From Nitrososphaerota archaeon (GTDB taxonomy: Archaea; Thermoproteota; Nitrososphaeria; Nitrososphaerales; Nitrosopumilaceae), in assembly GCA_022573895.1 (NCBI GenBank), contig JACZTB010000019.1, positions 1 to 31,113 of the forward strand: 31,113 nucleotides of DNA, given 5' to 3'. Position 1 is the stretch's first letter. Each line of letters starts with the position of its first letter. Shown piece after piece: positions 1,230 to 29,965 of this stretch. The notes under the pieces were generated by a model. The model was not told the origin of the DNA and made no database searches. It worked only from the letters and a program-made list of their open reading frames with translations. The position numbers were made by a program, and so were the translations under genes.

Positions 1230-3323
1230 ATGGAATTGAGTGAAGAGATACCAGAGCTAAAAAGAAGTGGAATCTTACAATCTACATCAAAACGTGTTAG
1301 AATGATCTTCTCTGTTATGGCAAGTCCGAACAGAATTGATATTCTTAGAATTCTAAATTCCAAGGGCCCTTTGACTTATTCCGAATTGAAATCACTTGCT
1401 GGATTTAAGTCAAAAAAAGAAAGTGGTAAATTTGCATACCACTTGAGAAAATTACTAAGACAATCTCTTGTTGCACTTAATAAATCTGAAAGACGTTACA
1501 CCATTACAAATCTTGGAAAACTAGTTTTGAGCTTGGCAAGACAAATTGAAGAAAGATCAATTATTGAAAGTGGAAAAATGTATGTTAGAACATCACACGC
1601 ATCCATTGAAGAATTTAATTCTCATAAAATTATTCAATCATTAGTTCGTGAAGGAAGTCTTCCATTAGAATTAGCACAAAAAATTACTGAAGAAGTTGAA
1701 AATAGAATTTACAAATATCAGACTACCTATCTAACTGGCTCATTAATCAGAGAACTGGTAAATTCTGTTCTATTAGAACACGGTCATGAGGAATATCGAA
1801 ATAAACTCGCACGCCTAGGCCTACCTGTTTATGACGTTCAAGAAATGATTTCCAACTTAGATAATGTGAATAACGGTGCTGAAGGTCTTTTGTTTAACGC
1901 TGGACAGACAATATTTTCTGAACACCTACTTACTAACATCTTGCCAAAAGATGTTGCAGATTCTCATCTTTCTGGAGACTTGCACATTACCAACCCTGGA
2001 ACTTGGTCAATGATTCCTGATACAATATTTGTTAATGTTAAAGAATTGATTGAAGATGGGATAAATCTTGGTGGAAAATATCTCGATGTATCACGAATTC
2101 CTGCATCAAAAAAACTTGATGAGATTACAAGTTCATTGTCTATTATAATTTCTCTTCTTTCTAAAGAAGCTTCACAAGAAATTGTACTTGATGGATTAGT
2201 TCAGTTGTTTTCAAAACATTCAAAATCTCTTCCAGAACTTGAACAAAAACTAACTGCTGCATTTGCAACTGCCTCTACAACTTCCAAATATAACAAAACA
2301 AGTACTAATGTCTCAATTCGGTTACAATTAGGTTCTGAAACAAAAATAATTAATTCAATTATTAATGCATACAAAAATTATACAAAGATAACACCAATTC
2401 CAAAAATTGGTTTGATAATAGATCATGACAAAGGAAAGATAACTGATGTTTCAGAATCAATATCTGAAATAATTTCACTTGGTGGAAAAGTAATGTTTGC
2501 TCAAGGTCAAACATCGAGTAATGGTGTAACAAATGGATCTACAAAGAGTACTAGCATACTTTCAATAATACTACAATCTGTTTCCATAAACCTACCAAGA
2601 CTTGCTTTTGAATCAAATAAAGATGAAACCTACTTTAGAGCAAGACTTGCATTACTAATGAAACCTGCACTATCTTCAATGGCCCTAAGAAAAAAAGATA
2701 TTTCAGATCTTACTAGAAGAGGACTCAATCCAATTCTTGCAAAGAACACCCAATACATGCAAAGAAGTTCTGTTACCCTTGTTGTAAACTTGGTAGGACT
2801 TAAAGAAGCAGTCTTTAACATACTTGGATTCAAAGATAACAAAGAAGGACGTGGAATTCTTTACAAAGTCATTGAAACTGCAGTTGACGTTGCAGCCAAA
2901 AAAGGTACAGAATTAGGCGTTCCTGTGGCTATATGTATGACTGAAACTAAAGGGTCACATCGCTTTGCTACTCTAGATGGTGAAAAATATGGCAAGAATT
3001 CTGCTCTCAATTCAATGGAGGGTGATTCTTATTCTGATGGAGTGGTGATTAACGCCTCTGAAATTCTTGATTATACCAATAAAAGTGAGCCTATTTCTGA
3101 ATGTAACAAATTCTCAAAATTGCTTAATGGTGGATTACTTATAACATTGCAAATTGATAAAAATGCAAAGGTTGATGAAATCAAAAAATCAATTGAGAAA
3201 GCATCTACACTTACACCTTCTTTCAAACTTGTTAAAAGAACTGCAATATGTGGTGAGTGTGGTTTCAAAGATGAACCATTTGAAGACAAGTGCCCAAAGT
3301 GTAAGTCACCATATGTTGTCTGA
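1230..3323 (+). CDS. Winged-helix (ArsR-like) + ATP-cone + NrdD-like (class III RNR-like) fusion protein lacking glycyl-radical tail; putative RNR/dNTP-responsive regulator
   Basis: The ORF is 697 aa. The N-terminus is wHTH (NRIDILRILNSKGPLTYSELK...RRYTITNLG). An ATP-cone follows (MYVRTSHASIEEFNSHKIIQSLV...LVNSVLLEHGHEEY). The long body contains VADSHLSGDLHITNPG, which resembles the HxxGxIHIHD segment of NrdD. The C-terminal ribbon is CGECG-x10-CPKCK and sits only 5 aa before the stop, so there is no RVxGY glycyl-radical motif. Confidence 0.75.
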   Translation: MELSEEIPELKRSGILQSTSKRVRMIFSVMASPNRIDILRILNSKGPLTYSELKSLAGFKSKKESGKFAYHLRKLLRQSLVALNKSERRYTITNLGKLVLSLARQIEERSIIESGKMYVRTSHASIEEFNSHKIIQSLVREGSLPLELAQKITEEVENRIYKYQTTYLTGSLIRELVNSVLLEHGHEEYRNKLARLGLPVYDVQEMISNLDNVNNGAEGLLFNAGQTIFSEHLLTNILPKDVADSHLSGDLHITNPGTWSMIPDTIFVNVKELIEDGINLGGKYLDVSRIPASKKLDEITSSLSIIISLLSKEASQEIVLDGLVQLFSKHSKSLPELEQKLTAAFATASTTSKYNKTSTNVSIRLQLGSETKIINSIINAYKNYTKITPIPKIGLIIDHDKGKITDVSESISEIISLGGKVMFAQGQTSSNGVTNGSTKSTSILSIILQSVSINLPRLAFESNKDETYFRARLALLMKPALSSMALRKKDISDLTRRGLNPILAKNTQYMQRSSVTLVVNLVGLKEAVFNILGFKDNKEGRGILYKVIETAVDVAAKKGTELGVPVAICMTETKGSHRFATLDGEKYGKNSALNSMEGDSYSDGVVINASEILDYTNKSEPISECNKFSKLLNGGLLITLQIDKNAKVDEIKKSIEKASTLTPSFKLVKRTAICGECGFKDEPFEDKCPKCKSPYVV

Positions 3324-3528: not shown

Positions 3529-6180
3529 TTGGATAATTCACAAATAGAAAATACTATCAATCAGATCCGTAAGCGCAGTGGCACAGTAACTGTCTTTAAT
3601 AAAGATAAAATCTCAAATGCAATATTCAAGGCATTGGCAGCCACCTCTAGAGCCGATCGTGGTCTAGCTGAACAACTCACAGATAGTGTAGTTGACAAAC
3701 TAGTAGAACAAGGATTTACAAGTTCTAGAGCGCCTACTGTTGAAGATATTCAAGATATTGTAGAGTCAACTTTGATCGATAGCGGTAATAGTGATATAGC
3801 AAAAGCATACATAGTTTACAGACACGAGAGAAGAAAATTAAGAGATGAAAAAAAGAAAATCTTAAATCTAAAGTCTCTTGATCCAGTTTCCAAAAAATTT
3901 GATTTGAATTGTTTGAGAGTCCTAGCATCAAGATATCTTTTTAGAAATGGAAAAAATGAGATTATTGAATCTCCAACTCAAATGTTTGAAAGAGTTGCAA
4001 TTCTAGTAGGAATTGGTGATATTCTATATGATTCACAAATATTTGACAAAGCAGGAAATACAAACCAGAATATAGATGAAGCAGAATCTTATCTTGAGAA
4101 ACTAGATGCCTTTGACTATAAGTTCAAAGTAGGAGATTATTATCTAAATAAATGGCATTTTAGATCCTTAATCAATCATTATGTAACACTTGCAACCAAA
4201 GGTCAGATGAAGGTTAGCTTCAAAGAACTTTTGACATTACTAGCAGCAAAGAAACTTGATAGTTATGCAGATAGAATAACCGAAAACTTTGAGATGATGA
4301 CCTCACAAGACTTTCTACCAAATTCACCAACAATGATGAATGCCGGTGGAAGATTGGGACAACTTTCAGCATGCTTTGTACTTGGAATGGGGGATAGTAT
4401 GGAACAAATCATGAAATCAACCTCTGATGCAGCATTAATCTTCAAGTCAGGCGGTGGAGTTGGAATCAACTACTCTGATCTTCGTGAGGAAGGTGATATT
4501 GTAGCATCAACATCTGGTGTTGCATCAGGTCCAGTATCTTTCATGAATATCATCAATACTGTAACTGAAGTTGTAAAACAAGGAGGAAAAAGACGTGGTG
4601 CAAACATGGGAATTATTGAAACATGGCATCCTGATGTTGAAAAGTTCATCACAAATAAAACAGAACCAGGTATTTTGGAAAACTTTAACGTAAGTGTTGG
4701 CATCTGGGAAGACTTTTGGCACGCACTTGTTAACACTAAAGATGGTAACTATGTCTTACGTAGCCCACATGACAAAAAACCCGTTAAAGAAATCAACGCA
4801 CATCAGCTAATTGATCTGATTGCATTATCTGCATGGAAAAGCGGAGAACCTGGATTGATCTTCTTTGATCAAATTAACAAACATAATGTATTTGCCAAAG
4901 CCAGACAAGCACCACTAAGAGCAACAAATCCATGTGGTGAACAAAGTCTCTATCCATACGAATCATGTAATCTAGGTTCTATCAACTTGGTAAATCTTGT
5001 AAAGAGACAAGCAGATGGAACTTATGAATTTGATTGGCAAAGATATGAAGAAATAATCAGAAAGACAACAAGATTCCTGGATAATATCATTGATGTAAAC
5101 AATTATCCAGTTGAAGAAATCACTGTAGCATCAAAAGAGTCTAGAAGAATTGGACTGGGAGTGATGGGAGTTGCTGATCTCTTATACAAACTAAGAATTC
5201 CATACAACTCCAAAGAAGGATATGAACTACAGGCCAAACTATCTGAGGCTTTAACATACTATTCAATGGAAGAAAGTGTTGCTCTTGCTAAATCTCGTGG
5301 TGAGTTTCCACTTTGTTCCAAGTCAGAATATCCCGAAGGAAAAATTCCAGTTGCAGGATACTATGAAAAACCAAAAGAATCTCATTCCTATGAATGGGAT
5401 GCACTAATTGAGAAGATCAAAAAGTATGGTATTAGAAATGTCTTGGCTACCACAGTTGCCCCAACTGGTACACTATCTATGATTGCAGATTGTTCAAACG
5501 GAATGGAACCTGCATTTGCTCTTGTGTTTGAAAAGCGAGTCACTGTTGGAAGATTCTTCTATACAAACAAGATTGTAGAAGAAGTCTTAAAAGAACATGG
5601 TCTTTACAGCGATGAACTTCTTGCAAAGATTGCAGACAACTATGGTTCACTGAAAGGATTAGATGAAATTCCACAATGGATGCAAGATACATTCGTTACA
5701 GCAATGGATATCCATTGGGCTGATCATCTTATGGCTCAAGGAGTATGGCAAGACTGGATTGGAAATGCAATTGCAAAAACAATCAACATGCCATATGATG
5801 TGACAGCAGAAGATGTCAAATCTGCATATCTGTTAGCACATGAACTAGGACTAAAAGGAATTACTATTTATCGCGATGGCTCTAGACACAAGCAGGTACT
5901 TCACATGACAAGTGAAAATGCACAAAAGATATTTGAGGTTACACCAACTGAGTATGTTACTCGTTATGTTGCAGCAAATATCACAAATCCATACATCAAA
6001 TCTCAAGTTAATACTGCACTTGCGTTAAAAGTTCATGACGAAGAAATTAAGATTGAACCTCAAAAACAAGAAGAGGTTTCAGAAGATCGTTTATGTCCAA
6101 CATGCAAAAACAATCTTGTCTTTGTAGAAGGTTGCAGTATTTGCATTGAATGTGGATACAGCGGTTGCACTTCTGGATAA
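3529..6180 (+). CDS. nrdJ: Ribonucleotide reductase, class II (adenosylcobalamin-dependent), with N-terminal ATP-cone
   Basis: The ORF is 883 aa with a TTG start. No ATG is available upstream of the ATP-cone (VTVFNKDKISNAIFKAL...AKAYIVYRHER). The RNR active-site signature TNPCGEQSLYPYESCNLGSINL is present. The C-terminus is a Cys-rich ribbon (CPTCKNN..CSICIECGYSGC). A GGGGAG lies about 8 nt upstream of the TTG. Confidence 0.93.
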   Translation: MDNSQIENTINQIRKRSGTVTVFNKDKISNAIFKALAATSRADRGLAEQLTDSVVDKLVEQGFTSSRAPTVEDIQDIVESTLIDSGNSDIAKAYIVYRHERRKLRDEKKKILNLKSLDPVSKKFDLNCLRVLASRYLFRNGKNEIIESPTQMFERVAILVGIGDILYDSQIFDKAGNTNQNIDEAESYLEKLDAFDYKFKVGDYYLNKWHFRSLINHYVTLATKGQMKVSFKELLTLLAAKKLDSYADRITENFEMMTSQDFLPNSPTMMNAGGRLGQLSACFVLGMGDSMEQIMKSTSDAALIFKSGGGVGINYSDLREEGDIVASTSGVASGPVSFMNIINTVTEVVKQGGKRRGANMGIIETWHPDVEKFITNKTEPGILENFNVSVGIWEDFWHALVNTKDGNYVLRSPHDKKPVKEINAHQLIDLIALSAWKSGEPGLIFFDQINKHNVFAKARQAPLRATNPCGEQSLYPYESCNLGSINLVNLVKRQADGTYEFDWQRYEEIIRKTTRFLDNIIDVNNYPVEEITVASKESRRIGLGVMGVADLLYKLRIPYNSKEGYELQAKLSEALTYYSMEESVALAKSRGEFPLCSKSEYPEGKIPVAGYYEKPKESHSYEWDALIEKIKKYGIRNVLATTVAPTGTLSMIADCSNGMEPAFALVFEKRVTVGRFFYTNKIVEEVLKEHGLYSDELLAKIADNYGSLKGLDEIPQWMQDTFVTAMDIHWADHLMAQGVWQDWIGNAIAKTINMPYDVTAEDVKSAYLLAHELGLKGITIYRDGSRHKQVLHMTSENAQKIFEVTPTEYVTRYVAANITNPYIKSQVNTALALKVHDEEIKIEPQKQEEVSEDRLCPTCKNNLVFVEGCSICIECGYSGCTSG

Positions 6181-6226: not shown

Positions 6227-7345
6227 ATGAACAAGAAGATTTTAGGCGTAGTTGCAGGCATAGCAATAATTATTGCAATAGCAGCTACAGTTTTGACCTT
6301 ACCAAGTTCAGAAATTATTACTATTCTAGAACCTAATGAAAAAATTGGTCTTGTAATTAATTCTCCAAATCAATCTATAACCCTACAAGAATTAGATCAA
6401 ATTTACTCTGAAGCATCAAACACTGGAATTGGAAGAAGCAATGTCTATCTTTTTTGGAATCTAGTTGAACCTGTACGAGGAGAATATGATTGGCAACAAT
6501 CCGACATACTGATGAATCTCAATAAAAAAAATAATCTCAAAGTCACACTTTACTTTTCTATAATTAACGGAGAAACACTTGGACCTTTTCCAAGTTGGAT
6601 TGGAAAGCCGCCTCTTAATTCCTTAGGAGAAGATAGAGTTGTTAGTGTCCTTGATGCAATATTATCTAGGTATGACATTATAGATACTCTAATTCTTTCA
6701 GGTGATACGGAATCTCAATTTAGATATCATGAGCAAAACATTCCTGTCTACAAAGATCTATTCAACATAGTCTATGATAAAATAAAAGAGAAACATCCAG
6801 ATGTAAAAATAGGAAATGCATTTGCATTACATAATGTTTTGAATAAAAATTTGCAACATATCGTATCTGATTTAGCTATCGGTGATTTTGTTGCCTTTTC
6901 TTATTCCCCAGTAGATATTCTCAATGAAATTGTTAAAACTCCACAACAAGCAAAAAAAGATCTACAACAAGTATTTGATCTGGCAGGTGATAAAAAAGTT
7001 GGAATCTTTGAGATTAGTTGGAGCACCTCAGATTTTGTTGAGGGAAGCGATTCTACACAAACAGAATTTTTAGAAAAATCCTTTGAATTTTACACTGAAA
7101 ATGAATCTGAATTAGAATTTTTTACTTGGTATAGACAGTATGATAGGCCTGAAGGAACATGTATAATTGATGAACTAGAAATTGGTGAAGATACTCTAAC
7201 TGTTGGGGGCTCTGGTTTTGGAAGTAGTGAGTATGTAATTGAAAGACTAAGCAAGTACATCTGTAATGCTGGTTTGATAAATAATAATGGGACTCCAAAA
7301 TCAAGTTGGAATGAATTTAAAAAACAAATTGAAATGATCAACTAA
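6227..7345 (+). CDS. Membrane-anchored/secreted protein, glycoside-hydrolase-like (clan GH-A TIM-barrel-like), function uncertain
   Basis: There is an N-terminal hydrophobic anchor (ILGVVAGIAIIIAIAATVLTL). The segment YLFWNLVEPVRGEYDWQQSDILMNL resembles the W-x-x-EP-x-x-G-x-YDW motif of GH-A enzymes. A possible nucleophile context is VGIFEISWS. Confidence 0.4.
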   Translation: MNKKILGVVAGIAIIIAIAATVLTLPSSEIITILEPNEKIGLVINSPNQSITLQELDQIYSEASNTGIGRSNVYLFWNLVEPVRGEYDWQQSDILMNLNKKNNLKVTLYFSIINGETLGPFPSWIGKPPLNSLGEDRVVSVLDAILSRYDIIDTLILSGDTESQFRYHEQNIPVYKDLFNIVYDKIKEKHPDVKIGNAFALHNVLNKNLQHIVSDLAIGDFVAFSYSPVDILNEIVKTPQQAKKDLQQVFDLAGDKKVGIFEISWSTSDFVEGSDSTQTEFLEKSFEFYTENESELEFFTWYRQYDRPEGTCIIDELEIGEDTLTVGGSGFGSSEYVIERLSKYICNAGLINNNGTPKSSWNEFKKQIEMIN

Positions 7346-11991: not shown

Positions 11992-12046
11992 TTACTTCTG
12001 ATATTGATCAAAATAATTTTATACATAGAATTTATATCAATTTTTG

Positions 12047-12631
12047 ATGTTTACAGGAATTATAGAAGGAATTGGTAAGGTAGAAAAGATTTCCAAAAAT
12101 ACAAAAAATAGGAGTGCTATTCAAATGACTGTAAATCTAGGAAAATATGCTAAGGGATTAAAAATTGGACAAAGTGTTGCTCTTAATGGAGTTTGTCTTA
12201 CTGTAACAAAACTATCAAAATCTAGTTGTATTTTTGAAATGATTGAAGAAACTACAAAAAAAACTGATCTTGGAAATCTAAAGGTTGGTGGAATTGTAAA
12301 CATTGAACGAAGTTTAAAGGTAGGTGATAGACTGGAAGGACATTTTGTTTTAGGTCATGTCGACGGAGTGGGAACAATTAAAAAAATTCTAAAAAAACCT
12401 AAAGAAGTTCAAGTTTGGTTTGAAGTTCCAAAAAAACTATCAAAATATGTAGTGAAAAAAGGTTCTATTGCTATAGATGGAATCAGTTTTACTATTGTTG
12501 ATATTAAAAACACTCTTGCAACAGTGTCAATAATTCCTCATACTATTAACGTTACAAACTTTCGCACCAAAAAAGTGAGCGACAAAGTTAATATTGAAAT
12601 TGATATTCTTGGAAAATATATTCTAAAATAA
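12047..12631 (+). CDS. ribE: Riboflavin synthase, bacterial-type alpha chain (two lumazine-binding repeats)
   Basis: MFTGIIEGIGKVEKIS...SVALNGVCLTV...GDRLEGHFVLGHVDGVG...GSIAIDGISFTIV is the canonical MFTGI(I/V) family. The track start TTG 12044 immediately precedes ATG 12047. Confidence 0.92.
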   Translation: MFTGIIEGIGKVEKISKNTKNRSAIQMTVNLGKYAKGLKIGQSVALNGVCLTVTKLSKSSCIFEMIEETTKKTDLGNLKVGGIVNIERSLKVGDRLEGHFVLGHVDGVGTIKKILKKPKEVQVWFEVPKKLSKYVVKKGSIAIDGISFTIVDIKNTLATVSIIPHTINVTNFRTKKVSDKVNIEIDILGKYILK

Positions 12632-12709
12632 AGCCAATTATCTACCATTTTAGTGGTAATTACTACTTTTTTAGTAAACTATATAATTAGTTTGTAACAA
12701 TTTTTGTAT

Positions 12710-13375
12710 ATGTACCTTGAATCTGGATTAGAATCTCTAAAACGTGGAGAATTTATTCTATTGTTTGATTCAGCTGGACGAGAAAATGAAATTGATATGG
12801 TTGTAGCAGCAGAATTTATTACACCAGAACATATTGCAAGAATGCGTCAACATGCTGGTGGATTATTATGTATTGCAATAGATCATAATTTTGCAACATC
12901 GCTTGAATTAAGATATATGCATGAAATTCTTTCTGATTCTCCAATTTCAAACAAGGAAATGATTATGGGTTTAGCACCTTACGGTGATTATCCAACTTTT
13001 TCATTATCTGTAAATCATTATCAAACTTATACCGGAATTACTGACAAAGATAGAGCATTGACAATTAAAGAAATGGCAAATATCTTTAATGTTGAAAATA
13101 AACAGAAAAAATTTGCTTCATCTTTTAAAACTCCAGGTCATGTTCCTTTATTGATAGCATCCAAAGGAATGTTAGCTGCACGTCAAGGACATACTGAAAT
13201 GTCTGTTTATTTAGCTCAAATTGCAGGATTGACTCCAGTTACTGCAATTTGTGAAATGATGGATGCTGAAACATATAATGCACTTTCTGTAGATAAAGCA
13301 GAAAAATTTGCAAAACAAAATGGGTTTCCATTAATTGATGGGAAAGAACTTTTAGAATACGCTAAGGTGCATTAG
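12710..13375 (+). CDS. ribB: 3,4-dihydroxy-2-butanone 4-phosphate synthase
   Basis: GEFILLFDSAGRENEIDMVVAAEFITPEHIARMRQHAGGLLCIA...GHVPLL..GMLAARQGHTEMSV matches the DHBP synthase signature. ATG 12710 is preferred over the track's TTG 12704. Confidence 0.92.
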   Translation: MYLESGLESLKRGEFILLFDSAGRENEIDMVVAAEFITPEHIARMRQHAGGLLCIAIDHNFATSLELRYMHEILSDSPISNKEMIMGLAPYGDYPTFSLSVNHYQTYTGITDKDRALTIKEMANIFNVENKQKKFASSFKTPGHVPLLIASKGMLAARQGHTEMSVYLAQIAGLTPVTAICEMMDAETYNALSVDKAEKFAKQNGFPLIDGKELLEYAKVH

Positions 13376-13377
13376 TT

Positions 13378-13794
13378 TTGAATATTGCTATAGTGGTTTC
13401 GGAATTCAATGAAAAAGTGACATCTAGGATGCTTTCTGTAGCTCAAGAAAAAGCAAACTCGATGAAATTAAAAATAGTCTATACATGTAAGGTTCCAGGT
13501 GCCTTTGACATGCCTATTGTTATAGATGCATTATTGAAGAAAAAAGATGTTGATGGCGTAGTTACTTTAGGTGTGATAATTAAGGGCCAGACAAAACATG
13601 ATGAGGTGATCTCTCATTCTACTGCAAAATCCTTTATTGATTTATCCATAAAATACCAAAAACCTGTTTCTCTAGGAATATCCGGTCCTGGAATGCAGGA
13701 AAGGCATGCTTATGCTAGAATAAGACCAGTTGCTGAACGTGCCGTTGAAGCTGTTGTAAAAATCTCTAAAGAACTACAGAGGATCCAAAAGTGA
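13378..13794 (+). CDS. ribH: 6,7-dimethyl-8-ribityllumazine synthase
   Basis: IAIVVSEFNEKVTSRML...VPGAFDMPIVIDALLKK.DVDGVVTLGVIIKGQTKHDEVISH matches the lumazine synthase pattern. The TTG start lies 2 nt after the ribB stop. Confidence 0.9.
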   Translation: MNIAIVVSEFNEKVTSRMLSVAQEKANSMKLKIVYTCKVPGAFDMPIVIDALLKKKDVDGVVTLGVIIKGQTKHDEVISHSTAKSFIDLSIKYQKPVSLGISGPGMQERHAYARIRPVAERAVEAVVKISKELQRIQK

Positions 13795-14543
13795 TTCAAC
13801 TTAGCATCTTGAAAATTAGTGGATATGGTTCTTGGACATTGACATTAGGAAGTGATAGAGAGCATGAACTTCAAATGCTTCAAGCATCCCTTTACAAAGA
13901 AGTACAGAAACTATTTTCTGAAAAAAATTGTCTAGTTTTTCCTAATCGAGCAGATGAATTTTTTGTAGTTTCAAACGGGCTTGAGTTGGATGATCACATT
14001 CAAATCCAAAAAACACTCGAAAAATTATTTGATATACGTTTAACAATTTCTATCGGTTATGGTCAATCTCCATTTGAAGCAAACTTAAACGCATATGAAG
14101 GAAAGAAAAATGAAACCATCTTAAATAAAGAACACAATATTTTTGGTTTTGTTAATGGTAAATCTGACTTAAAAGTTACAATTATGCATTTAGATATAGA
14201 TGATCTTACTTCAAAAAGACAAACTAATTCTCCTTATGAGATTTCATTAATGATTTTTGAGCTATATTCAAAGATGTCAAAATTCTTTCTGGAAAAAAAT
14301 TCTCTTACCTTTTTTATGGGTGGTGATAACTTTATAGTAATTGCAAGTGATGATGCAAAAAATTCTGTACAGAATTTTATTGATATAATTAAAAGTGATG
14401 ACAAAATTTCTTTAAACTGTGGAATTGGTAATGGACATACTGCTAGAGAAGCAGTAAAACTAGCCACACAATCTCTTGATACTATACGAAAAATTCGTGA
14501 TTCAGGAAAGAAGAAACCTGAAGTTTATGAATTATCATGTTAA
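13791..14543 (+). CDS. arfA: GTP cyclohydrolase III (archaeal, FAPy-forming)
   Basis: MIQLSILKISGYGSWTLTLGSDREHELQMLQASLYKEV..LVF..RADEFFVVSNG...FFMGGDNFIV...CGIGNGHTAREA is colinear with MJ0145-type GCH III. The GTG start overlaps the ribH stop (GTGA). Confidence 0.88.
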   Translation: MIQLSILKISGYGSWTLTLGSDREHELQMLQASLYKEVQKLFSEKNCLVFPNRADEFFVVSNGLELDDHIQIQKTLEKLFDIRLTISIGYGQSPFEANLNAYEGKKNETILNKEHNIFGFVNGKSDLKVTIMHLDIDDLTSKRQTNSPYEISLMIFELYSKMSKFFLEKNSLTFFMGGDNFIVIASDDAKNSVQNFIDIIKSDDKISLNCGIGNGHTAREAVKLATQSLDTIRKIRDSGKKKPEVYELSC

Positions 14544-15727
14544 TTAAAAATCTAAGTATTTTATCAGGTCAAGAATTAAACTTTGTTTTAAATACTAATA
14601 TTAAAATTCAGAATAAAATATTTAAAAAAATTCAACCAGAAATTAGACCAAGTGTTAAAGAAGAATCTATAGATTGTGAAGGCCTTCTATTAATTCCAGG
14701 ATTCATCAATGCTCATACACACATAGGTGATTCCATTGGAAAAGATGTTTTACTTAACAATTCTGTTGATAAAAGAATTCATCCTGTATTCGGAGCCAAA
14801 TCTAAAATTCTAAAAAATACTTCTCAAGAAAACCTAGCTAATTTTATGAAAAACACATGTCATTCAATGATCAGAAAAGGGATTACCACATTTGTTGATT
14901 TTAGAGAAGGAGGATTAGATGGTGTTACTTTACTCAAAAAAGTATTATCCGATGTTCCTTTACGTTCAATTATCCTAGGTAGAGTTGAATTTTTTCAAGA
15001 ACACGCTGAAATCAGAAAAAACCTACCTTTTCCTAGAGAAAAAATTAAAGATCTTGCTAAGATTCTCAAAAAATCTGATGGAATTGGTATAAGTGGCGCA
15101 AATGAGAATAGCACATCAGTACTAAATTATTATTCAAAAACAACAAAACTTAGAGTTATACATTCCTCTGAAACGAGGCAAAGTGTTTCCACATCAAAGA
15201 AAATTACTGGAAAATCTGAGACAGTTCGAGCATTATCTCTAAAACCTCATTTTTTGATTCACATGACTTATGCTTCAAAAGGTGATCTTAATGCTGTGGC
15301 AAAGAGAACTAGAGGAATTGTAATCTGCCCAAGGGCTAACTCATCTCTAGCAGAGGGAATTCCAGACATAGAATTGATGCAAAAGGCAGGATGCACATTA
15401 GCTTTAGGTACGGATAATGTGATGATAAATTCTCCTGACATGTTTAGAGAAATGGATTTTCTTTGGAAAGTAACTATGGGAATTCACAAAAAAAGAATCG
15501 ATCCAAAAGAAATTCTTAAAATGGCTACAGTTAATGGAGGAAAGATTTTGAAAAAAAACATTGGAGTGATTGAAATTGGGAAAATTGCTGATTGTATTTT
15601 TCTTGACAAGCATGCATTAGATTTAGAACCAATGCACAATCCACATGCATCAATTGTTCATCGAGCATCAGAATCTGCAATCAAAGCTGTAATGATTGGA
15701 GGTAAAATCGTACATGGAAAAATCTAA
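14537..15727 (+). CDS. Amidohydrolase-superfamily enzyme, deaminase-type motif set (ATZ/TRZ / guanine-cytosine deaminase-like); candidate riboflavin-pathway deaminase or deformylase
   Basis: Motifs seen by eye are PGFINAHTHIGDS (HxH), VIHSSETRQ (HxxE), FLIHMTY (His) and LALGTDNV (Asp). The ATG overlaps the arfA stop by 7 nt (ATGTTAA). Its 3' end overlaps the reductase start by 14 nt. Confidence 0.8.
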   Translation: MLIKNLSILSGQELNFVLNTNIKIQNKIFKKIQPEIRPSVKEESIDCEGLLLIPGFINAHTHIGDSIGKDVLLNNSVDKRIHPVFGAKSKILKNTSQENLANFMKNTCHSMIRKGITTFVDFREGGLDGVTLLKKVLSDVPLRSIILGRVEFFQEHAEIRKNLPFPREKIKDLAKILKKSDGIGISGANENSTSVLNYYSKTTKLRVIHSSETRQSVSTSKKITGKSETVRALSLKPHFLIHMTYASKGDLNAVAKRTRGIVICPRANSSLAEGIPDIELMQKAGCTLALGTDNVMINSPDMFREMDFLWKVTMGIHKKRIDPKEILKMATVNGGKILKKNIGVIEIGKIADCIFLDKHALDLEPMHNPHASIVHRASESAIKAVMIGGKIVHGKI

Positions 15728-16370
15728 ACCTTATGTAATTCTAAGTGCAGCAATATCCGTTGATGGAAAGATTGCTACTAGAACAGGTGATTCAAATCTA
15801 TCTTCAAAACAAGATAGAGTAAGACTTCATAAACTAAGATCTAAAGTAGATGCAATTCTTGTTGGAAAAAATACAGTTTTACTAGATAATCCTTTGTTAA
15901 CTGTACGATATACTAAAGGAAAAAATCCAATTAGAATAATTTTAGATTCTAAAGGTACTATATCTGAAAAATCAAAAATCCTACAAACAAGTTCTAAGAT
16001 TCCAACAATTATAGCTGTATCCGAAAAAATCAGTAAATCAAACTTTGATAAACTATGTAAATTTCCTGTGGATGTAATTATTGTTGGCAAAAATTCTGTG
16101 AATATAAAATTATTATTGAAAAAACTTTTCGATAAAAAAATTAATACAATACTTGTTGAAGGTGGTGGAACTGTTAACTGGGAATTTATCAAACATAATC
16201 TTTTTGATGAATTAATTATTACATTATCTCCATTTTTAATTGGAGGAAAAGATGCTATTTCTTTTGTTCAGGGACAAGGTTTTGAAAAAATTTCAAACTC
16301 ACCTAATCTCCGCCTTAAATCAATCACGAGGCTCAAAAATCACCTTGTTTTGTGTTATGTTAAGGTCTAA
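15714..16370 (+). CDS. arfC: 2,5-diamino-6-ribosylamino-4(3H)-pyrimidinone 5'-phosphate reductase (RibD C-terminal-domain type, archaeal)
   Basis: MEKSKPYVILSAAISVDGKIATRTGDSNLSS..D..RLHKLRSKVDAILVGKNTVLLDNPLLTVR...ILVEGGGTVNWEF is colinear with the MJ0671 family, which also begins MEKKPY. I therefore prefer ATG 15714 over the track's TTG 15696. Confidence 0.88.
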   Translation: MEKSKPYVILSAAISVDGKIATRTGDSNLSSKQDRVRLHKLRSKVDAILVGKNTVLLDNPLLTVRYTKGKNPIRIILDSKGTISEKSKILQTSSKIPTIIAVSEKISKSNFDKLCKFPVDVIIVGKNSVNIKLLLKKLFDKKINTILVEGGGTVNWEFIKHNLFDELIITLSPFLIGGKDAISFVQGQGFEKISNSPNLRLKSITRLKNHLVLCYVKV

Positions 16371-16648: not shown

Positions 16649-16672
16649 TAGTTAACGAAAAGCCGTTAACTA
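16649..16672. terminator. Perfect 9-bp hairpin between convergent genes (TAGTTAACG-aaaagc-CGTTAACTA) followed by a T-rich tract
   Basis: Read directly from the sequence. It lies 7 nt after the stop of the 16406-16642 gene. A second 10-bp inverted repeat, TTTTTCTTAA (16690-16699) / TTAAGAAAAA (16729-16738), abuts the ALDH stop on the other strand. Confidence 0.4.
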
Positions 16673-16739: not shown

Positions 16740-18131
16740 TTACTCTACGTAGTGATGATGTGTAAGATTATCATAAAATCTGACAGATTTAATGTTTACA
16801 AATTCTAACATTCCATATCTTGATAATTCTCTTCCAAATCCACTATGTTTTATTCCTCCAAATGGAATTCTGGGATCTGAGATTACTACATTGTTGACAC
16901 TGACAATTCCCGATTCAATTAGTCTAGACATTTTTTCTGCTTTTGCAAGATCTTTTGTCCAAATACTTGCACCTAAACCAAATTCAATATCATTAGCTAA
17001 TTTGATTGCCTCACTTTCGTTATCCATTATTGTAATTGGTGCCACTGGTCCAAATGTTTCTTCATTACTAATTCTCATGTTTGGTTTAACGTTTGTAAGA
17101 ATAGTTGGTTCGTAGAAGAATCCTTTCCCATCAATCTCAGAACCCCCCAAAAGGATTTCAGCACCTTTCTCTTTTGCATCCTCTACAATTCCTGAAATTG
17201 TTTCTAGACCCTCTTTATTTGAAATTGGTCCAATATCTGTTTCCATAGATGTTGGATCTCCAATTTTGAGTTGTGATGTTTTTTTGATAAATAATTCAAT
17301 GAATTCTTTTGCAATATTTTTTCCAACAAAGAATCTTTTTGATGCTACACAACTTTGACCACAGTTGATGAATCTACCCTTTACTGCTCCTTCTGCCGCT
17401 TTTTCAATAATTGCGTCATCTAATACTATGAATGGATCACTTCCACCTAATTCTAAAACACATTTTTTCAAATGCGATGCAGCTCTTTGACCTACTTTTG
17501 CTCCTGCACTTGTACTTCCAGTAAAGGTTACAGCATTGATATCAGAGTCAATTAGGTGATTAGCAACATCTACACTTCCTACTACTGTCTGAAAAATTCC
17601 ATCTGGCACACCTGATTCAGTAAATGCTTTTTCAATTTCAATTCCTGATTGCATTGTTATTCTGGATGGTTTCATCACAATTACATTTCCAGCTATTAAA
17701 CATGGAGCTGCAAATCTTAATGCCTGCCAATAAGGAAAATTCCAAGGCATGATCGAACCAATTATCCCTATTGGTTCAAAAGTTAGAAAACTCTTTCTTG
17801 CATCTGTATTTAATACTTCATCCGAAATAAAACTGTCACCATGATCAGCATAAAATTCTAACGCCCAAGCACATTTTTCAACTTCTCCAATTGATTCTTT
17901 GATGGGTTTGCCCATTTCACTTGTTTCAATTTTTGCAAGTTTTGTTTTGTTTTTCCTTAGGTATTCTACTACATTGTAAATGTAACTTCGACGTTTTTCA
18001 TAATCTTTCTTCCATTCTGGAAATGCTTTTCTAGCTTTTCCCACTAATTCAAACACTTTGTTTTTATCCATTACTGAAAATGTTGCAATTTCTTCACCAG
18101 TAGCTGGATTTACTGTAGTAATTTGATTCAA
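16740..18131 (-). CDS. NAD(P)+-dependent aldehyde dehydrogenase (succinate-semialdehyde dehydrogenase-like)
   Basis: The ORF is 463 aa. ALDH hallmarks are present: PWNFPYWQ, FTGSTSAGAKV, the catalytic region LELGGSDP and FINCGQSCVASKR, and EETFGPV. Confidence 0.9.
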   Translation of the reverse strand: MNQITTVNPATGEEIATFSVMDKNKVFELVGKARKAFPEWKKDYEKRRSYIYNVVEYLRKNKTKLAKIETSEMGKPIKESIGEVEKCAWALEFYADHGDSFISDEVLNTDARKSFLTFEPIGIIGSIMPWNFPYWQALRFAAPCLIAGNVIVMKPSRITMQSGIEIEKAFTESGVPDGIFQTVVGSVDVANHLIDSDINAVTFTGSTSAGAKVGQRAASHLKKCVLELGGSDPFIVLDDAIIEKAAEGAVKGRFINCGQSCVASKRFFVGKNIAKEFIELFIKKTSQLKIGDPTSMETDIGPISNKEGLETISGIVEDAKEKGAEILLGGSEIDGKGFFYEPTILTNVKPNMRISNEETFGPVAPITIMDNESEAIKLANDIEFGLGASIWTKDLAKAEKMSRLIESGIVSVNNVVISDPRIPFGGIKHSGFGRELSRYGMLEFVNIKSVRFYDNLTHHHYVE

Positions 18132-22376: not shown

Positions 22377-22451
22377 TATCTTAATTTTTGTGCCTAAAAA
22401 CCTGTTAAAAATGAATGATTTAAGTAACGGAATTGCTGAATTTTGGGTGTA

Positions 22452-22787
22452 ATGAGCAGCATGGCTGAATCTAAAGTTACTGGAATAATCAAGACTTTAA
22501 ACGCCTTGGAAAATGATCTGGATTCCATAAACACCAAAGTATCCGATATGAAAAAACAACTTGCTGTAAAGACACAGAAGGAAATTGATGTCTTATTAAA
22601 AGAAATTCGAGAAATGGCTACAAAAGAAGCTGAAGTTATTATTAATGCATCAAAAAAAAAGGCAAGCACTGAATCTGCAAAAATTACTCAGGAAGGTGAG
22701 GCCAAATTATCTGAAATCCAGTCGAATGTTGATGCTAATTTTGATAAAGCTGTAAAACACGTCGTGTCAACTGTTTTGAAAGCATAA
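22452..22787 (+). CDS. Coiled-coil protein resembling A/V-type ATP synthase subunit H
   Basis: All-helical and K/E-rich. The C-terminal ..NFDKAVKHVVSTVLKA resembles the conserved end of archaeal AtpH. It is not in an ATPase operon here. ATG 22452 is preferred to the track's TTG 22443. Confidence 0.45.
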   Translation: MSSMAESKVTGIIKTLNALENDLDSINTKVSDMKKQLAVKTQKEIDVLLKEIREMATKEAEVIINASKKKASTESAKITQEGEAKLSEIQSNVDANFDKAVKHVVSTVLKA

Positions 22788-23057: not shown

Positions 23058-23471
23058 ATGATGCAAAGACTCGATCAAGATTTTGAAAAAGAAGATCTAA
23101 TCTTAGGAGTTGATCCAGGACAGAGAACTGGTTTGTCGGTATTTTACTATGAAAAAGAAATTGAAAGCTCATTTCATTCTTCAGTTGAAGAATTGGTTTT
23201 TCATATTATTCAAGTTTTAGGCGGTCTTAGGGCAAAAAGAAAAATTGTAAAAATTGGAAATGGAAATATGAAAATTGCAAAACAAATTGTAACTATGCTT
23301 AATCTAAAATTTTGTTCATCTTTTGAATTGGAATTTGTTGATGAGAGAAAAACTAGTCTAAAAATTAAAAATTTTAATCAAAGAGGAAAACGAGATATGC
23401 TTTCTGCAAAGTATATCTCACAACGAGATGGATATAGACATTCTATCCTACCTCTATCAATGACAGGTTAA
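23058..23471 (+). CDS. RNase H-fold (RuvC/YqgF-like) protein; real N-terminus probably upstream (frame open from 22794)
   Basis: DLILGVDPGQRTGLSVFY is a RuvC/YqgF-type first strand with the catalytic Asp. FVDERKTS and RDMLSAKYI are later acidic motifs. The 88 codons upstream of the ATG are stop-free and protein-like (see finding). Confidence 0.6.
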   Translation: MMQRLDQDFEKEDLILGVDPGQRTGLSVFYYEKEIESSFHSSVEELVFHIIQVLGGLRAKRKIVKIGNGNMKIAKQIVTMLNLKFCSSFELEFVDERKTSLKIKNFNQRGKRDMLSAKYISQRDGYRHSILPLSMTG

Positions 23472-23828: not shown

Positions 23829-24272
23829 ATGACTTGTAAAGGAATTTGTGTTAGATACAAGGCTCAAAAGCCTGTTGGAACCGGAAGATATGCTTCTGGA
23901 CAACGTCGATGCCAAATTTGTGAAATCTTCATCAAATGGGAAGGACTTTGGTGTCCATGTTGTGGATATAGATTAAGGACAAAACCACGTAATCTAAAAT
24001 ACAAAGCAAAATTACGTGCTAGAGTTGAGGCTGATTCTATTGAAGCTAAAGCAGTTGCAAAAATTCAATCAGAAGAGATTGAAGTTGATATAGCAGTAAA
24101 AGCAAAATCAAAAGCTAAAACAACAAAATCCAAAGCAACGATAAAGGAAAAAACCCCTTGTACATATTGTGAAAAACTGTTTGTATATACCGACAAACAT
24201 GAAAGGAATTGCAAGAAAAATTCAAATATTAAAATTTCCCAAGAAAGTGAATCAATAGCAATAAAAGCATAA
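23829..24272 (+). CDS. Zinc-ribbon protein with Lys/Ala-rich linker and C-terminal CxxC..H..C finger; hypothetical
   Basis: The N-terminal Cys cluster is CKGICVRYKA...RRCQICEIFIKWEGLWCPCCGYRLRTKPRN. The basic linker is KAKSKAKTTKSKA. The C-terminus is CTYCEKLFVYTDKHERNC. TTATATA at 23794-23800 lies about 30 nt upstream of the ATG. Confidence 0.7.
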   Translation: MTCKGICVRYKAQKPVGTGRYASGQRRCQICEIFIKWEGLWCPCCGYRLRTKPRNLKYKAKLRARVEADSIEAKAVAKIQSEEIEVDIAVKAKSKAKTTKSKATIKEKTPCTYCEKLFVYTDKHERNCKKNSNIKISQESESIAIKA

Positions 24273-26072: not shown

Positions 26073-26486
26073 ATGTCTGAACAAGAAAAAACTAACGAGT
26101 GGGACTCATTATGGCAACAATATACAAAATCTCTAGAGAATTGGAAATCACTCTTTGAACAAATTCAGAATGCAAGTAATGATATGCAATCTAAATTCAA
26201 TCAAGTTTGGGACAAGGCTACTGTTGAATCAAGCTCCGAAACCATGAAATTATTTGGAGAAAATTGGCAAAAAGCCATGAATGATGTGGGAATGAAATCC
26301 TTGAAGGAATTTAGTGAAAATTGGCAAAAAGCTCTCAATGATTCTAATGCTTCTGTTTTCAAACAATTTGCTGAAAATTGGCAAAACACTCTAAGTTCAT
26401 CTGGATTAGAACAAATGCAAGCGTATGGTGAAATGATGAAAAAATTTGCCGAAACTTGGAATTCTATGTGGCCAAGATCCCAATAA
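26073..26486 (+). CDS. Trp-rich helical-repeat protein A (19-aa F-x-E-N-W-Q-K-A repeats), unknown function
   Basis: The ORF is 137 aa with the repeats KLFGENWQKAMND / KEFSENWQKALND / KQFAENWQNTLSS / KKFAETWNSMW. It is a paralogue of the minus-strand ORF at 28401-28634(+). Confidence 0.8.
   Translation: MSEQEKTNEWDSLWQQYTKSLENWKSLFEQIQNASNDMQSKFNQVWDKATVESSSETMKLFGENWQKAMNDVGMKSLKEFSENWQKALNDSNASVFKQFAENWQNTLSSSGLEQMQAYGEMMKKFAETWNSMWPRSQ
26259..26387 (+). repeat. 57-bp-periodic intragenic repeat (GAAAATTGGCAAAAAGC core)
   Basis: Exact 17-mers lie at 26259-26275 and 26316-26332. A 15/17 copy starts at 26373. These encode the 19-aa protein repeat. Confidence 0.8.
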
Positions 26487-26524: not shown

Positions 26525-27193
26525 ATGATGACAATTACTCAGAGTGAATGCTTTATTGAACTATCTAGTTTTGAAGATTTAGCAAGATATGCCTGTGCAT
26601 TTAGAGAATTTCCAAGAAGAGTATATACTCAAGAATTTGATGGTTCAAGAATTATTTCAAGTGGTTTAACTCTTGCAAATACTTTATTGATTTTTTATGC
26701 CCAAATGCCAAAATCTGGCAGATATATTTCATATCAAGTTAATGCAGGAAAAGAAATTTGCGAAATTGTAGAATCTACAAAAAACATCTCAAATTATGCA
26801 CCTATTGTACATATGGAATCAAAGATTTCTTCATTATCTGTAAAAACCAAAAAAATTCCTGATCAGTTTCATCCAATTCAAGTTAAAGATTTGGGAAGTT
26901 TAGCACGATTAACATATGATCCTGAGTTCCCAGATGAACAAAATCTTACTTTATACACATTACCTCACAAAAATTCTTGGGTAATAGGATACATTACACA
27001 ATTAGATATGGATGACATAATCTATAATTTCAATTATGTTGAATTAGATTCTGAACCTACCAAGCATTTTATAAAATATCAGGGAAATCAAGGACGAAAT
27101 CCAGAATTTTCAGATCGTTTTGATCATGGATATTCGTATTTACCAATCATCAAAATTAAGAATGAGCATACAATCTTTGGATTTTCAGATTAA
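26525..27193 (+). CDS. Hypothetical protein (222 aa), no family recognised
   Basis: An ATG-ATG start lies 38 nt after the previous gene, which is probably co-transcribed. The composition is protein-like and the ORF is long for this AT content. No motif is identifiable by eye. Confidence 0.7.
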   Translation: MMTITQSECFIELSSFEDLARYACAFREFPRRVYTQEFDGSRIISSGLTLANTLLIFYAQMPKSGRYISYQVNAGKEICEIVESTKNISNYAPIVHMESKISSLSVKTKKIPDQFHPIQVKDLGSLARLTYDPEFPDEQNLTLYTLPHKNSWVIGYITQLDMDDIIYNFNYVELDSEPTKHFIKYQGNQGRNPEFSDRFDHGYSYLPIIKIKNEHTIFGFSD

Positions 27194-27202
27194 ATTTTAA
27201 AA

Positions 27203-27886
27203 CTATTTCCACATCGTTAATTCTTTTATTTTCTTTCTTGATTCTTCAACTAATCGTTTCATAACTTGGATGTAAATTTCGGCTGCATATACAATTTCAA
27301 TATCTTTGTATTCTTCAATATCTAGAAATGTAGATGCTATAACCTGATTTTTTCGTACTTTAGGCTCATTATTTTTATTTCTTTTATTATTTATGATTTC
27401 TAAAAATATTGGTAATTGTCTTTTGATTTCAATTTCTAATTCTTCTTTTGAACATAATTTTTCATGACTCAAATTTACTTTAATCTGTTGACAAGTATCA
27501 TCTTTATATCTACTTGATGCCATGATCATGATTTTAATCTTAGGTAGTTTTTCAAATTTGTTCTTGAATTGACAGATTTTTTTAATGAAATTTGGATATG
27601 GATTTTCATGTTCCTGATTGTATTTGATTGAATACCATTCTGAAAATTTAATTGCATTTTGATCATTTTTCATTTTTGCTTTTCTATAAAAATTTTTTTG
27701 TGAAATCTTTTCTGAAATAAATAACCCAAAATCTGTATTTCCTTCTTCAAAAATTCCATTAAATGTGTCATTTACAGAATTGATGTATTGATTAAAAAAA
27801 TAATTTACATAGTAAGGATCAGGATCGTATTGTTTAATCTGTTTTAGATATATCTCACAGTTTTTTATCGTTTTTTCAATATTCAT
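27203..27886 (-). CDS. Hypothetical protein (227 aa), no family recognised
   Basis: The start ATG shares one base with the upstream gene's TAA (TAATG on the minus strand). The protein is Lys/Asn/Tyr-rich and helical, with no catalytic motif recognised. Confidence 0.7.
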   Translation of the reverse strand: MNIEKTIKNCEIYLKQIKQYDPDPYYVNYFFNQYINSVNDTFNGIFEEGNTDFGLFISEKISQKNFYRKAKMKNDQNAIKFSEWYSIKYNQEHENPYPNFIKKICQFKNKFEKLPKIKIMIMASSRYKDDTCQQIKVNLSHEKLCSKEELEIEIKRQLPIFLEIINNKRNKNNEPKVRKNQVIASTFLDIEEYKDIEIVYAAEIYIQVMKRLVEESRKKIKELTMWK

Positions 27887-28266
27887 TAGTCTTTGCTAGA
27901 TTCAAAAGTTACATATTTTGATCGTGCTTTCAAACTTGTTGCTAATTCTTTGAAAATTTCATTTACACTAACATCAACTAGATTAATGGTTGCATTTTCC
28001 TTTACTATTTGTTTTTCAAATTTTTCTTTAATTGCAAAAGATACTGATGACCAATGTAAAGTTCCTTTCAATTGTTCTTCAACCGTGATATTTGTTGTTG
28101 GGAAATTTGCTGGCGAGAAAACAATTCCATTTGTCCATTGCATTGTGGGAATTCCTCCACCTGATGTTTTTGTACTAAACGCTATTTGTTTTACCCAATC
28201 ATCAAATTTGTATTCAATTACTTCATGAATAACCAATTTTTTCCATGGTTCTATAGAGATTTCCAT
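27886..28266 (-). CDS. Hypothetical protein (126 aa), no family recognised
   Basis: ATG 28266 opens a 126-aa ORF. The composition looks like mixed beta/alpha (..IPTMQWTNGIVFSPANFPTTNITVEEQLKGTLHW..). It is coupled to the 227-aa ORF. Confidence 0.7.
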   Translation of the reverse strand: MEISIEPWKKLVIHEVIEYKFDDWVKQIAFSTKTSGGGIPTMQWTNGIVFSPANFPTTNITVEEQLKGTLHWSSVSFAIKEKFEKQIVKENATINLVDVSVNEIFKELATSLKARSKYVTFESSKD

Positions 28267-29327: not shown

Positions 29328-29642
29328 CTATCTGGAAAACAGTCTTGCAAGAAATGAACTCTTTTTTACTACAGGCGTATACATCTCTGTACTTTCTGCA
29401 TCTTTTCTATCAATGATTTCATCTAATTCTTCGTTTGAAATTAGCGTCCTTGAATCCTTTTCTTTTTGTTTTGCATCTGTATTACCTTTGAATCTCTCTA
29501 TCCTCTGTTCAAGTTGGTCATTCATTGACTCTAAAAATCTTATGTCCGTCTTGTAAAGTGGTTCGTTCTTCTCTATACAACTAAGGATAAATTTTAGTCT
29601 GCCTTCATCTCCCATTCCTGTATTCAAAAGATCAGTTGCCAT
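29328..29642 (-). CDS. Hypothetical protein (104 aa; helical/coiled-coil)
   Basis: ATG 29642 is preferred; the track's TTG 29657 would add 5 aa. The sequence is MATDLLNTGMGDEGRLKFILSCIEKNEPLYKTDIRFLESMNDQLEQRIERF... with no family recognised. It is preferred over the overlapping + strand ORF 29225-29416, whose sequence is low-complexity. Confidence 0.5.
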   Translation of the reverse strand: MATDLLNTGMGDEGRLKFILSCIEKNEPLYKTDIRFLESMNDQLEQRIERFKGNTDAKQKEKDSRTLISNEELDEIIDRKDAESTEMYTPVVKKSSFLARLFSR

Positions 29643-29965
29643 TGTTTTGTGGTTCAATTTTTTATCTTATCTGCTTTGAATTAATATTCTTTCTTTTTTT
29701 ACTATTTGATACGAACTGTTAACAGCTTATGCAAACTGGAGTTGGATTTTAGTAAAGGATCAACTTTTCTTCTCTAGTCTTCTTTTCTCATCACATCAAG
29801 AAAATACAAAGATGAATTTGATAAATAATGTCCACAGACGGGTTATAGAGTATCAAATCAAGCAACTAAAGAACGAACTCGCAAAATTCGAGGAATAATT
29901 CTTCCTCTTTTTTATTCCAACAAACAAACTACTGTATTATAATGTGGATTAATGTAACTTTCTAC

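Follow-up and report, generated by a model that had tools for sequence, protein, structure and literature searches.

In the biosynthesis of riboflavin and F420 by archaea, the pyrimidine deaminase step is, to our knowledge, among the last to lack an assigned enzyme. Archaea apparently lack orthologues of the RibD deaminase domain; a candidate replacement, 'PyrD', was put forward by Osterman, Overbeek and Rodionov (2010) on the grounds of clustering on the chromosome and phyletic co-occurrence, and has been counted in 15 RbkR regulons in an analysis with the Thaumarchaeota among its lineages, where it is said that the candidate 'remains to be tested' (Rodionova et al. 2017, PMC5397151). HVO_2483, which is homologous to MJ0699 (Q58110), has likewise been named as the candidate, and listed as an open issue needing experimental confirmation (Pfeiffer & Dyall-Smith 2021, PMC8305020). 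The stretch of DNA that is the subject of this analysis (the window: the whole 31 kb, or 31,113 nucleotides, of contig JACZTB010000019.1 from a Nitrososphaerota archaeon of the genus Nitrosopumilus, low in GC at about 32%) carries, between arfA and arfC of a riboflavin operon, the gene for an amidohydrolase that its sequence places in the MJ0699/HVO_2483 family and that is quite probably the archaeal riboflavin-pathway pyrimidine deaminase. The initial annotation of this DNA had also made the amidohydrolase a candidate for the archaeal riboflavin deaminase. Family, active-site residues and gene order uphold that proposal; its novelty does not survive, since it is well supported that the idea is an independent rediscovery of a prediction published in 2010 and brought to thaumarchaeal genomes in 2017 (PMC5397151, PMC8305020).

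The link to MJ0699 runs through one homologue, from Methanotorris igneus: a search with it recovered the orthologues of the Methanococcales, one of which, by cluster look-up, is AAB98692/Q58110, the 380-residue 'Uncharacterized protein MJ0699' of M. jannaschii, and the orthologues from M. lauensis bear the deposited name 'Pyrimidine deaminase archaeal predicted'. BLASTP aligns the window protein with MJ0699 over 322 residues at 36% identity (E 3e-54). MJ0699 scores 589 bits against the NCBIfam equivalog model NF005552 (PRK07213; cut-off 294), and this is the sole curated NCBIfam cut-off that the window protein passes, with 327.6 bits; its next-best model scores 127. Position relative to the DadD/MtaD, guanine deaminase and SsnA clades was judged by the separation of curated hidden Markov model (HMM) scores, which fall far short for DadD (NF005557, 103.7 bits against a cut-off of 522) and for the methylthioadenosine (MTA)/S-adenosylhomocysteine (SAH) deaminase MtaD (NF012037, 66.6 against 779), as they do for guanine deaminase (TIGR02967, 68.1 against 375.4), SsnA (NF005540, 78.7 against 444) and 8-oxoguanine deaminase (86.6 against 532). 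A place inside the DadD/MtaD clade, which the initial annotation had held to be fatal to its proposal, is not what these scores give.

The family is broad and coherent. An exhaustive search of 1.8 billion cluster representatives returned 202 homologues at E < 1e-30, and an alignment was made of 61 representatives of full length that diverge from one another and share 28-74% identity with the query. NF005552 matches all 61 and is the best family for each of the six that were checked individually, as it is for the window protein and for MJ0699. Orthologues that are 82-94% identical are found in Nitrosopumilus metagenome-assembled genomes (MAGs) and isolates; a search of viral contigs with the amidohydrolase found no relatives. 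Amidohydro_1 (PF01979) spans residues 52-392 and, with Amidohydro_3, accounts for the only Pfam matches; the protein has no creatininase-fold domain (PF02633; ArfB model NF033501) and so lies outside the ArfB family. Some family members (among P0128, P0130, P0132 and P0415) reach 475-502 residues, and their match to the query is split in two, which implies, at the level of sequence, that ~50-80 residues are inserted mid-barrel. One family cluster has a bacterial member (Trueperaceae), so that the family is not strictly archaeal.

The catalytic apparatus is that of the COG0402 deaminases. The four motifs picked out from the translation in the initial annotation, INAHTHIG, IHSSE, LIHMTY and LGTDN, are all present in the 396-residue protein, and the 61-sequence alignment makes P54, H60, H62, D65, G115, H209, E212, H242, G291, D293, N294 and R376 invariant, with K69, K88, D121-F-R-E-G126 and C264-P-R266 nearly so. 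The complete COG0402 set is there: HxH on strand 1, His and the HxxE Glu on strand 5, His on strand 6 and Asp on strand 8. The family profile aligns end to end with solved MTA/adenosine deaminases (3lnp, 4dyk), and the HxH, the HxxE, the strand-6 His and the strand-8 Asp share columns with NAHGH, HxHET, VHMT and GTDG of those enzymes. In COG0402 deaminases a single metal, held by the HxH, His and Asp residues, activates water, and the HxxE Glu and strand-6 His shuttle protons. Superimposed on this common set is a signature specific to the family (HTHxGDSxxK, DFREGG, CPRxN, GTDNVMxNSPDMFREM and R376) that is absent from the aligned deaminases. It is a matter of speculation that K69, K88, R123, R266 and R376 bind the phosphate and the ribityl chain.

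An AlphaFold2 model built from the alignment (predicted local distance difference test, 96.1; predicted template-modelling score, 0.94) is a (beta/alpha)8 barrel with a flanking beta-sandwich. The nearest solved folds retrieved with Foldseek are all COG0402 deaminases or dechlorinases (template-modelling scores of 0.80-0.87 at 14-22% identity), guanine and isocytosine/8-oxoguanine deaminases among them. The guanine and isocytosine enzymes act by taking the same 2-amino group off a 2-amino-4-oxopyrimidine ring. Family scores, active site and nearest folds together make the protein, as far as such evidence can, an amidohydrolase of the deaminase type that forms its own clade, outside DadD/MtaD.

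The setting of the gene in the window is as follows.

12044-12631, forward strand: ribE, riboflavin synthase of the bacterial, trimeric (Lum_binding) type, PF00677 at 155.9 bits; upstream neighbour of the coupled unit.
12642-12677, no strand assigned: tandem RbkR-type operator, CTACCATTTTAGTGGTAA followed immediately by TTACTACTTTTTTAGTAA, adjacent palindromes in the 72-nt ribE-ribB spacer.
12704-13375, forward strand: ribB, PF00926 DHBP_synthase at 196.4 bits, TIGR00506 at 212.5 against a cut-off of 177.
13378-13794, forward strand: ribH, 6,7-dimethyl-8-ribityllumazine synthase, PF00885 DMRL_synthase at 114.6 bits, TIGR00114 at 126.2 against 84.6.
13791-14543, forward strand: arfA, GTP cyclohydrolase III, PF05165 GCH_III at 162.7 bits.
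14537-15727, forward strand: the amidohydrolase, 396 residues, MJ0699/PRK07213 family, candidate 'PyrD' (NF005552, as above).
15714-16370, forward strand: arfC, archaeal 2,5-diamino-6-ribosylamino-4(3H)-pyrimidinone 5'-phosphate reductase, PF01872 at 183.1 bits, TIGR01508 at 204.9 against 186.
16649-16672, forward strand: terminator-like hairpin 3' of arfC, weak evidence (1 site against 1.5 expected by chance).
16740-18131, reverse strand: aldehyde dehydrogenase (Aldedh) gene, convergent to the operon.

That ribB, ribH, arfA, the amidohydrolase gene and arfC form one tightly coupled unit had been asserted beforehand; reading of the sequence confirms the reading-frame positions and all four junctions: 2 nt between the ribB stop at 13375 and the ribH start at 13378, a GTGA overlap of ribH with arfA (13791-13794), a 7-nt ATGTTAA overlap of arfA with the amidohydrolase gene (14537-14543), and a 14-nt overlap between the arfC ATG at 15714 and the amidohydrolase stop at 15727. 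The list of open reading frames (ORFs) also has an alternative upstream start for arfC, a TTG at 15696. The hairpin marks the end of the co-directional block, ahead of the convergent Aldedh gene. The NCBIfam riboflavin synthase model NF006767 (cut-off 155) also identifies the ribE product, at 224 bits, and ArfC is, by Pfam and NCBIfam, a stand-alone RibD_C protein without a cytidine-deaminase domain. ArfA scores 154.7 bits against NF002587 (the GTP cyclohydrolase IIa subfamily), which is under the cut-off of that model (306); its residues 136-221 also match weakly the palm domain of mCpol, the minimal CRISPR polymerase (PF18182, 35.6 bits), and the ArfA of another archaeal locus (L090, below) has a faint GGDEF_2 match, both of which fit a shared palm/cyclase-like fold.

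The operon had been described as lacking a RibD deaminase domain of the cytidine-deaminase (CDA) fold and an ArfB-type gene; that description holds, and the absence extends to the entire window. Pfam and NCBIfam domain scans find neither creatininase-fold (ArfB-type) nor CDA-fold genes anywhere in its 31 kb, the dCMP_cyt_deam domain (PF00383) is absent from the amidohydrolase, from ArfC and from the rest, and tblastn with two creatininase proteins encoded in riboflavin operons elsewhere (L087 and L088, below) gives no match in the window.

The unit lies downstream of an operator whose halves, by pattern search and reading of the sequence, are CTAC-N10-GTAA in the first palindrome and TTAC-N10-GTAA in the second, with a TATA-like TATATAA directly downstream of it and ahead of the ribB start at 12704. 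The operator agrees in consensus and in tandem layout with the predicted thaumarchaeal RbkR motif, TTAC-N10-GTAA (Rodionova et al. 2017, PMC5397151). Among 73 sequences (72 related loci and the window itself), 67 have an exact site in the ribE-ribB spacer and 64 have two. Conservation of the operator in this spacer puts the amidohydrolase gene within a predicted riboflavin-responsive transcription unit, the RbkR regulon. The ribE gene, being upstream of the operator, may be transcribed separately from ribB-arfC. A scan for sigma-70 promoters (24 sites against 25 expected) is uninformative, the scan being of a bacterial type and the organism archaeal.

A profile scan with 12 amidohydrolase sequences supplied the gene order in related genomes: in all of the best 80 genome loci, every one from Nitrosopumilales and 63-93% identical, the order arfA-amidohydrolase-arfC is kept wherever the contig reaches. 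Wider synteny was read from 12 loci outside the Nitrosopumilaceae, obtained through 11 single-protein contig look-ups and numbered here with the prefix L; the gene is clustered with rib genes in eight (L083, L085-L088 and L090-L092), or in seven of 11 distinct proteins, since L091 and L092, sharing one Jordarchaeales protein, count as a single case. Four of these loci are from other Nitrososphaerota. On an ENA contig (L087) the order is ribB-ribH-arfA-amidohydrolase-arfC-creatininase-ribE, and in MAG GCA_029785885.1 (L088, 1098-10364) the same run of genes is preceded by cofG-cofH and followed by a HAD-family gene. L090 reads ribE-ribB-ribH-arfA-amidohydrolase-arfC, and L085 reads ribE-ribB-ribH-amidohydrolase-arfC, with no arfA adjoining the amidohydrolase gene. 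The Bathyarchaeota locus L083 and the similar L086 have flavin reductase-amidohydrolase-arfC-cofG-cofH, and the Asgard Jordarchaeales loci L091 and L092 have ribB-ribH-ribC-arfA-amidohydrolase-arfC. What every cluster keeps is the amidohydrolase gene directly upstream of arfC, and L086 is the one in which the two genes do not overlap. The initial annotation had regarded confinement of the synteny to one genome as damaging; the synteny is instead kept in Nitrososphaerota, Bathyarchaeota and Jordarchaeales.

The riboflavin synthase is not constant across these clusters. Nitrosopumilus has the bacterial-type trimeric ribE (in the window, at 12044-12631) and the Jordarchaeales have the archaeal pentameric ribC, the two DMRL_synthase-family genes at 4302-5228 of L091 being ribH and ribC; judged by these domain assignments, the same operon core carries a different last enzyme in the two groups. 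The HAD-family gene of L088 (9699-10364) is a candidate for the archaeal 5-amino-6-ribitylaminouracil-5'-phosphate phosphatase (EC 3.1.3.104), a step that is listed as a pathway gap (Pfeiffer & Dyall-Smith, PMC8305020). The creatininase-fold genes of L087 (7903-8640) and L088 (7935-8750) fall short of the ArfB equivalog cut-off (180 bits, against 39.6 for the L087 protein) and score closer to MftE and creatininase models. They may represent a distinct formamidase lineage, ArfB-like or BrbF-like; for the L087 protein, operon context and the precedent of BrbF would point to formamidase activity.

These facts suffice for a provisional account of the reaction. The protein would be a mononuclear-metal amidohydrolase-superfamily deaminase (the metal probably Zn or Fe) that takes the product of ArfC, presumably 2,5-diamino-6-ribitylamino-4(3H)-pyrimidinone 5'-phosphate, and removes its 2-amino group, at C2, so as to yield 5-amino-6-ribitylamino-2,4(1H,3H)-pyrimidinedione 5'-phosphate. 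The dephosphorylated product would go to lumazine synthase (RibH) and, where F420 is made, also to FO synthase (CofG/CofH). The enzyme would thereby stand in, without homology, for the CDA-fold deaminase domain found in bacterial RibD and in yeast Rib2; its gene probably shares a transcript with arfA and arfC, to which it would be translationally coupled, and lies downstream of the riboflavin-responsive RbkR operator. Action on the ArfC product accords with the archaeal order, reduction before deamination, that comes from work on M. jannaschii ArfC (Graupner et al. 2002, as cited in PMC5397151). Linkage to cofG and cofH fits a deaminase role because FO synthase consumes 5-amino-6-ribitylaminouracil (PMC8498797), the dephosphorylated product of the proposed reaction. 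The L088 block holds a plausible gene for every other step of the pathway, which leaves the amidohydrolase for the deamination, and the pairing of the amidohydrolase gene with arfC may be seen, by analogy, as mirroring the deaminase-reductase fusion of bacterial RibD.

The alternatives differ in what the amidohydrolase is taken to act on. The initial annotation had allowed that it might instead hydrolyse a formamide, taking the place of ArfB on the GTP cyclohydrolase III product 2-amino-5-formylamino-6-ribosylamino-4(3H)-pyrimidinone 5'-phosphate (FAPy). Such a role would suit the want of a creatininase-fold gene in the Nitrosopumilus operon and in the window, the position of the gene directly after arfA with its 7-nt overlap, and the ability of amidohydrolase-superfamily enzymes to hydrolyse amides; it is now disfavoured, to the point of being highly unlikely, in view of the operons in L087 and L088, each of which holds both the amidohydrolase gene and a creatininase-fold gene (PF02633). 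Both known formamidases, archaeal ArfB and bacterial BrbF, have the creatininase fold (PMC9478397), and a creatininase-family gene (COG1402/PF02633) is present in 23 of 23 surveyed thaumarchaeal genomes (PMC7848895), so that absence from the operon need not mean absence from the genome. Moreover, the amidohydrolase gene pairs with arfC without arfA in the Bathyarchaeota, as it does without an adjoining arfA in L085, and both the catalytic set with its HxxE and the closest folds are those of deaminases. Also very improbable is a bifunctional deaminase and formamidase in Nitrosopumilus, or a deaminase that acts on the ribosyl intermediate in the bacterial order of steps: with its gene between arfA and arfC the enzyme could work on either side of the reductase step, and the operon is without a formamidase gene, but the protein is a single Amidohydro_1 barrel with no extra domain, there is no precedent in the family, and the reduction-first order cited above for M. 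jannaschii ArfC speaks against the second variant.

Somewhat less remote, though still unlikely, is a deaminase or hydrolase of another substrate that is loosely linked to the pathway, serving to clear 5'-deoxyadenosine, MTA or SAH for CofG/CofH, or deaminating guanine, a pterin or cytosine (creatinine). The nearest solved structures are indeed MTA/adenosine deaminases, the Bathyarchaeota gene adjoins the radical-SAM genes cofG and cofH, one contig has the amidohydrolase gene beside a Bmp/ABC transporter, and a role in breaking down creatinine has been given to thaumarchaeal COG0402 genes (PMC7848895). Set against this are scores for DadD, MtaD, guanine deaminase and 8-oxoguanine deaminase far under the curated cut-offs, an invariant signature of the family's own that the aligned deaminases lack, and the location of the gene inside the predicted RbkR riboflavin regulon; the partner that stays constant across phyla is arfC, neither cofGH nor transporters. 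Several points nevertheless weigh against deamination of the ArfC product. Dechlorinases, and deaminases that act on unrelated substrates, have the same active-site residues, which therefore do not fix the substrate. Clustering with rib genes is absent in Methanotorris igneus, in Methanobacterium sp. SMA-27, in a Thermoplasmatales MAG and on one Logan contig. NCBIfam (June 2026) names the family 'chlorohydrolase', and the UniRef label for MJ0699 is 'uncharacterized'. In the searchable literature no assay, knockout or structure of any family member, MJ0699, HVO_2483 and MMP1380 (the presumed locus tag of the M. maripaludis orthologue) included, was found, and the archaeal deaminase goes unnamed in a 2026 review of riboflavin biosynthesis. 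All told, it is on balance likely that the MJ0699/PRK07213 family is the missing archaeal deaminase of riboflavin and F420 biosynthesis and that, as a corollary, the thaumarchaeal 'creatinine-degradation' genes would be the riboflavin deaminase and the formamidase.

Ammonia-oxidising Thaumarchaeota are globally abundant vitamin producers. If the pyrimidine deaminase assignment is true, a gap in the pathway is closed, widespread 'chlorohydrolase' and 'cytosine deaminase' annotations are to be corrected, and reconstructions that use these genes for creatinine or cytosine catabolism are affected. Sponge-symbiont genomics, for instance, has assigned the 'cytosine deaminase (COG0402)' and 'creatinine amidohydrolase (PF02633)' genes of Thaumarchaeota to creatinine degradation (PMC7848895); provided that the COG0402 gene counted there is the same one, its operon context suggests that this gene, and possibly the creatininase too, serves riboflavin instead. 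What is added to the published prediction is context from lineages sequenced after 2017 (Asgard, Bathyarchaeota and the L088 supercluster) and this caution on 'creatinine degradation' annotations.

Elsewhere in the window, 1230-3323 encodes a 697-residue protein with an N-terminal helix-turn-helix (HTH; DUF7347/HTH_20), an ATP-cone and a C-terminal fragment resembling NRDD, the anaerobic ribonucleotide reductase (RNR; profile positions 279-529). The gene is directly upstream of that for a class I/II-type ribonucleotide reductase large subunit (3529-6180), and its product may be an RNR-derived regulator. ORFs of 109-372 residues without a Pfam match at E <= 1e-5 lie at 6227-7345, 22443-22787, 23058-23471, 23829-24272, 26073-26486, 26525-27193, 27203-27886 (reverse strand), 27886-28266 (reverse strand), 29328-29657 (reverse strand) and 30176-30727. 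The lowest GC content of the window, 0.25-0.28, is in the 27-30 kb stretch.

Set beside the known systems, the window protein is nearest to the MJ0699/HVO_2483 family, which goes by 'PyrD' or 'pyrimidine deaminase, archaeal predicted' in the SEED subsystem and in Rodionova et al. 2017, and of which it is the Nitrosopumilus orthologue: it shares the equivalog HMM family, the invariant residues and the arfA/arfC/rib clustering of the published prediction, and nothing of substance is different. MJ0699 has CVRAN where most members, the window protein included, have CPRAN, and in the Methanococcales the gene is not clustered with rib genes, unlike in Nitrosopumilus. With the COG0402 deaminases (the MTA/SAH/adenosine deaminases 4gbd, 4dyk, 4f0r and TM0936, the guanine deaminases 2uz9 and 6ohb, and the isocytosine/8-oxoguanine deaminase 7ww2) the amidohydrolase has in common the (beta/alpha)8 barrel, the beta-sandwich domain and the HxH/HxxE/His/Asp set; it differs in being 14-22% identical to them, in failing their curated cut-offs, and in carrying family-specific motifs where those enzymes have substrate-binding residues. 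The N-terminal domain of RibD and yeast Rib2 (EC 3.5.4.26) are counterparts in function, the equivalent riboflavin step being predicted and a gene for a RibD_C-type reductase adjoining, whereas the fold is that of a TIM-barrel amidohydrolase rather than a cytidine deaminase, with no PF00383 domain; and in contrast to bacterial RibD the amidohydrolase would follow the archaeal and fungal order, its expected substrate being the reduced, ribityl form. ArfB (MJ0116) and BrbF likewise carry out a hydrolytic step early in the pathway, and in L087 and L088 their fold is represented in the same operon, but they are of another fold and family than the amidohydrolase, and the relation between the two is one of co-occurrence, not replacement.

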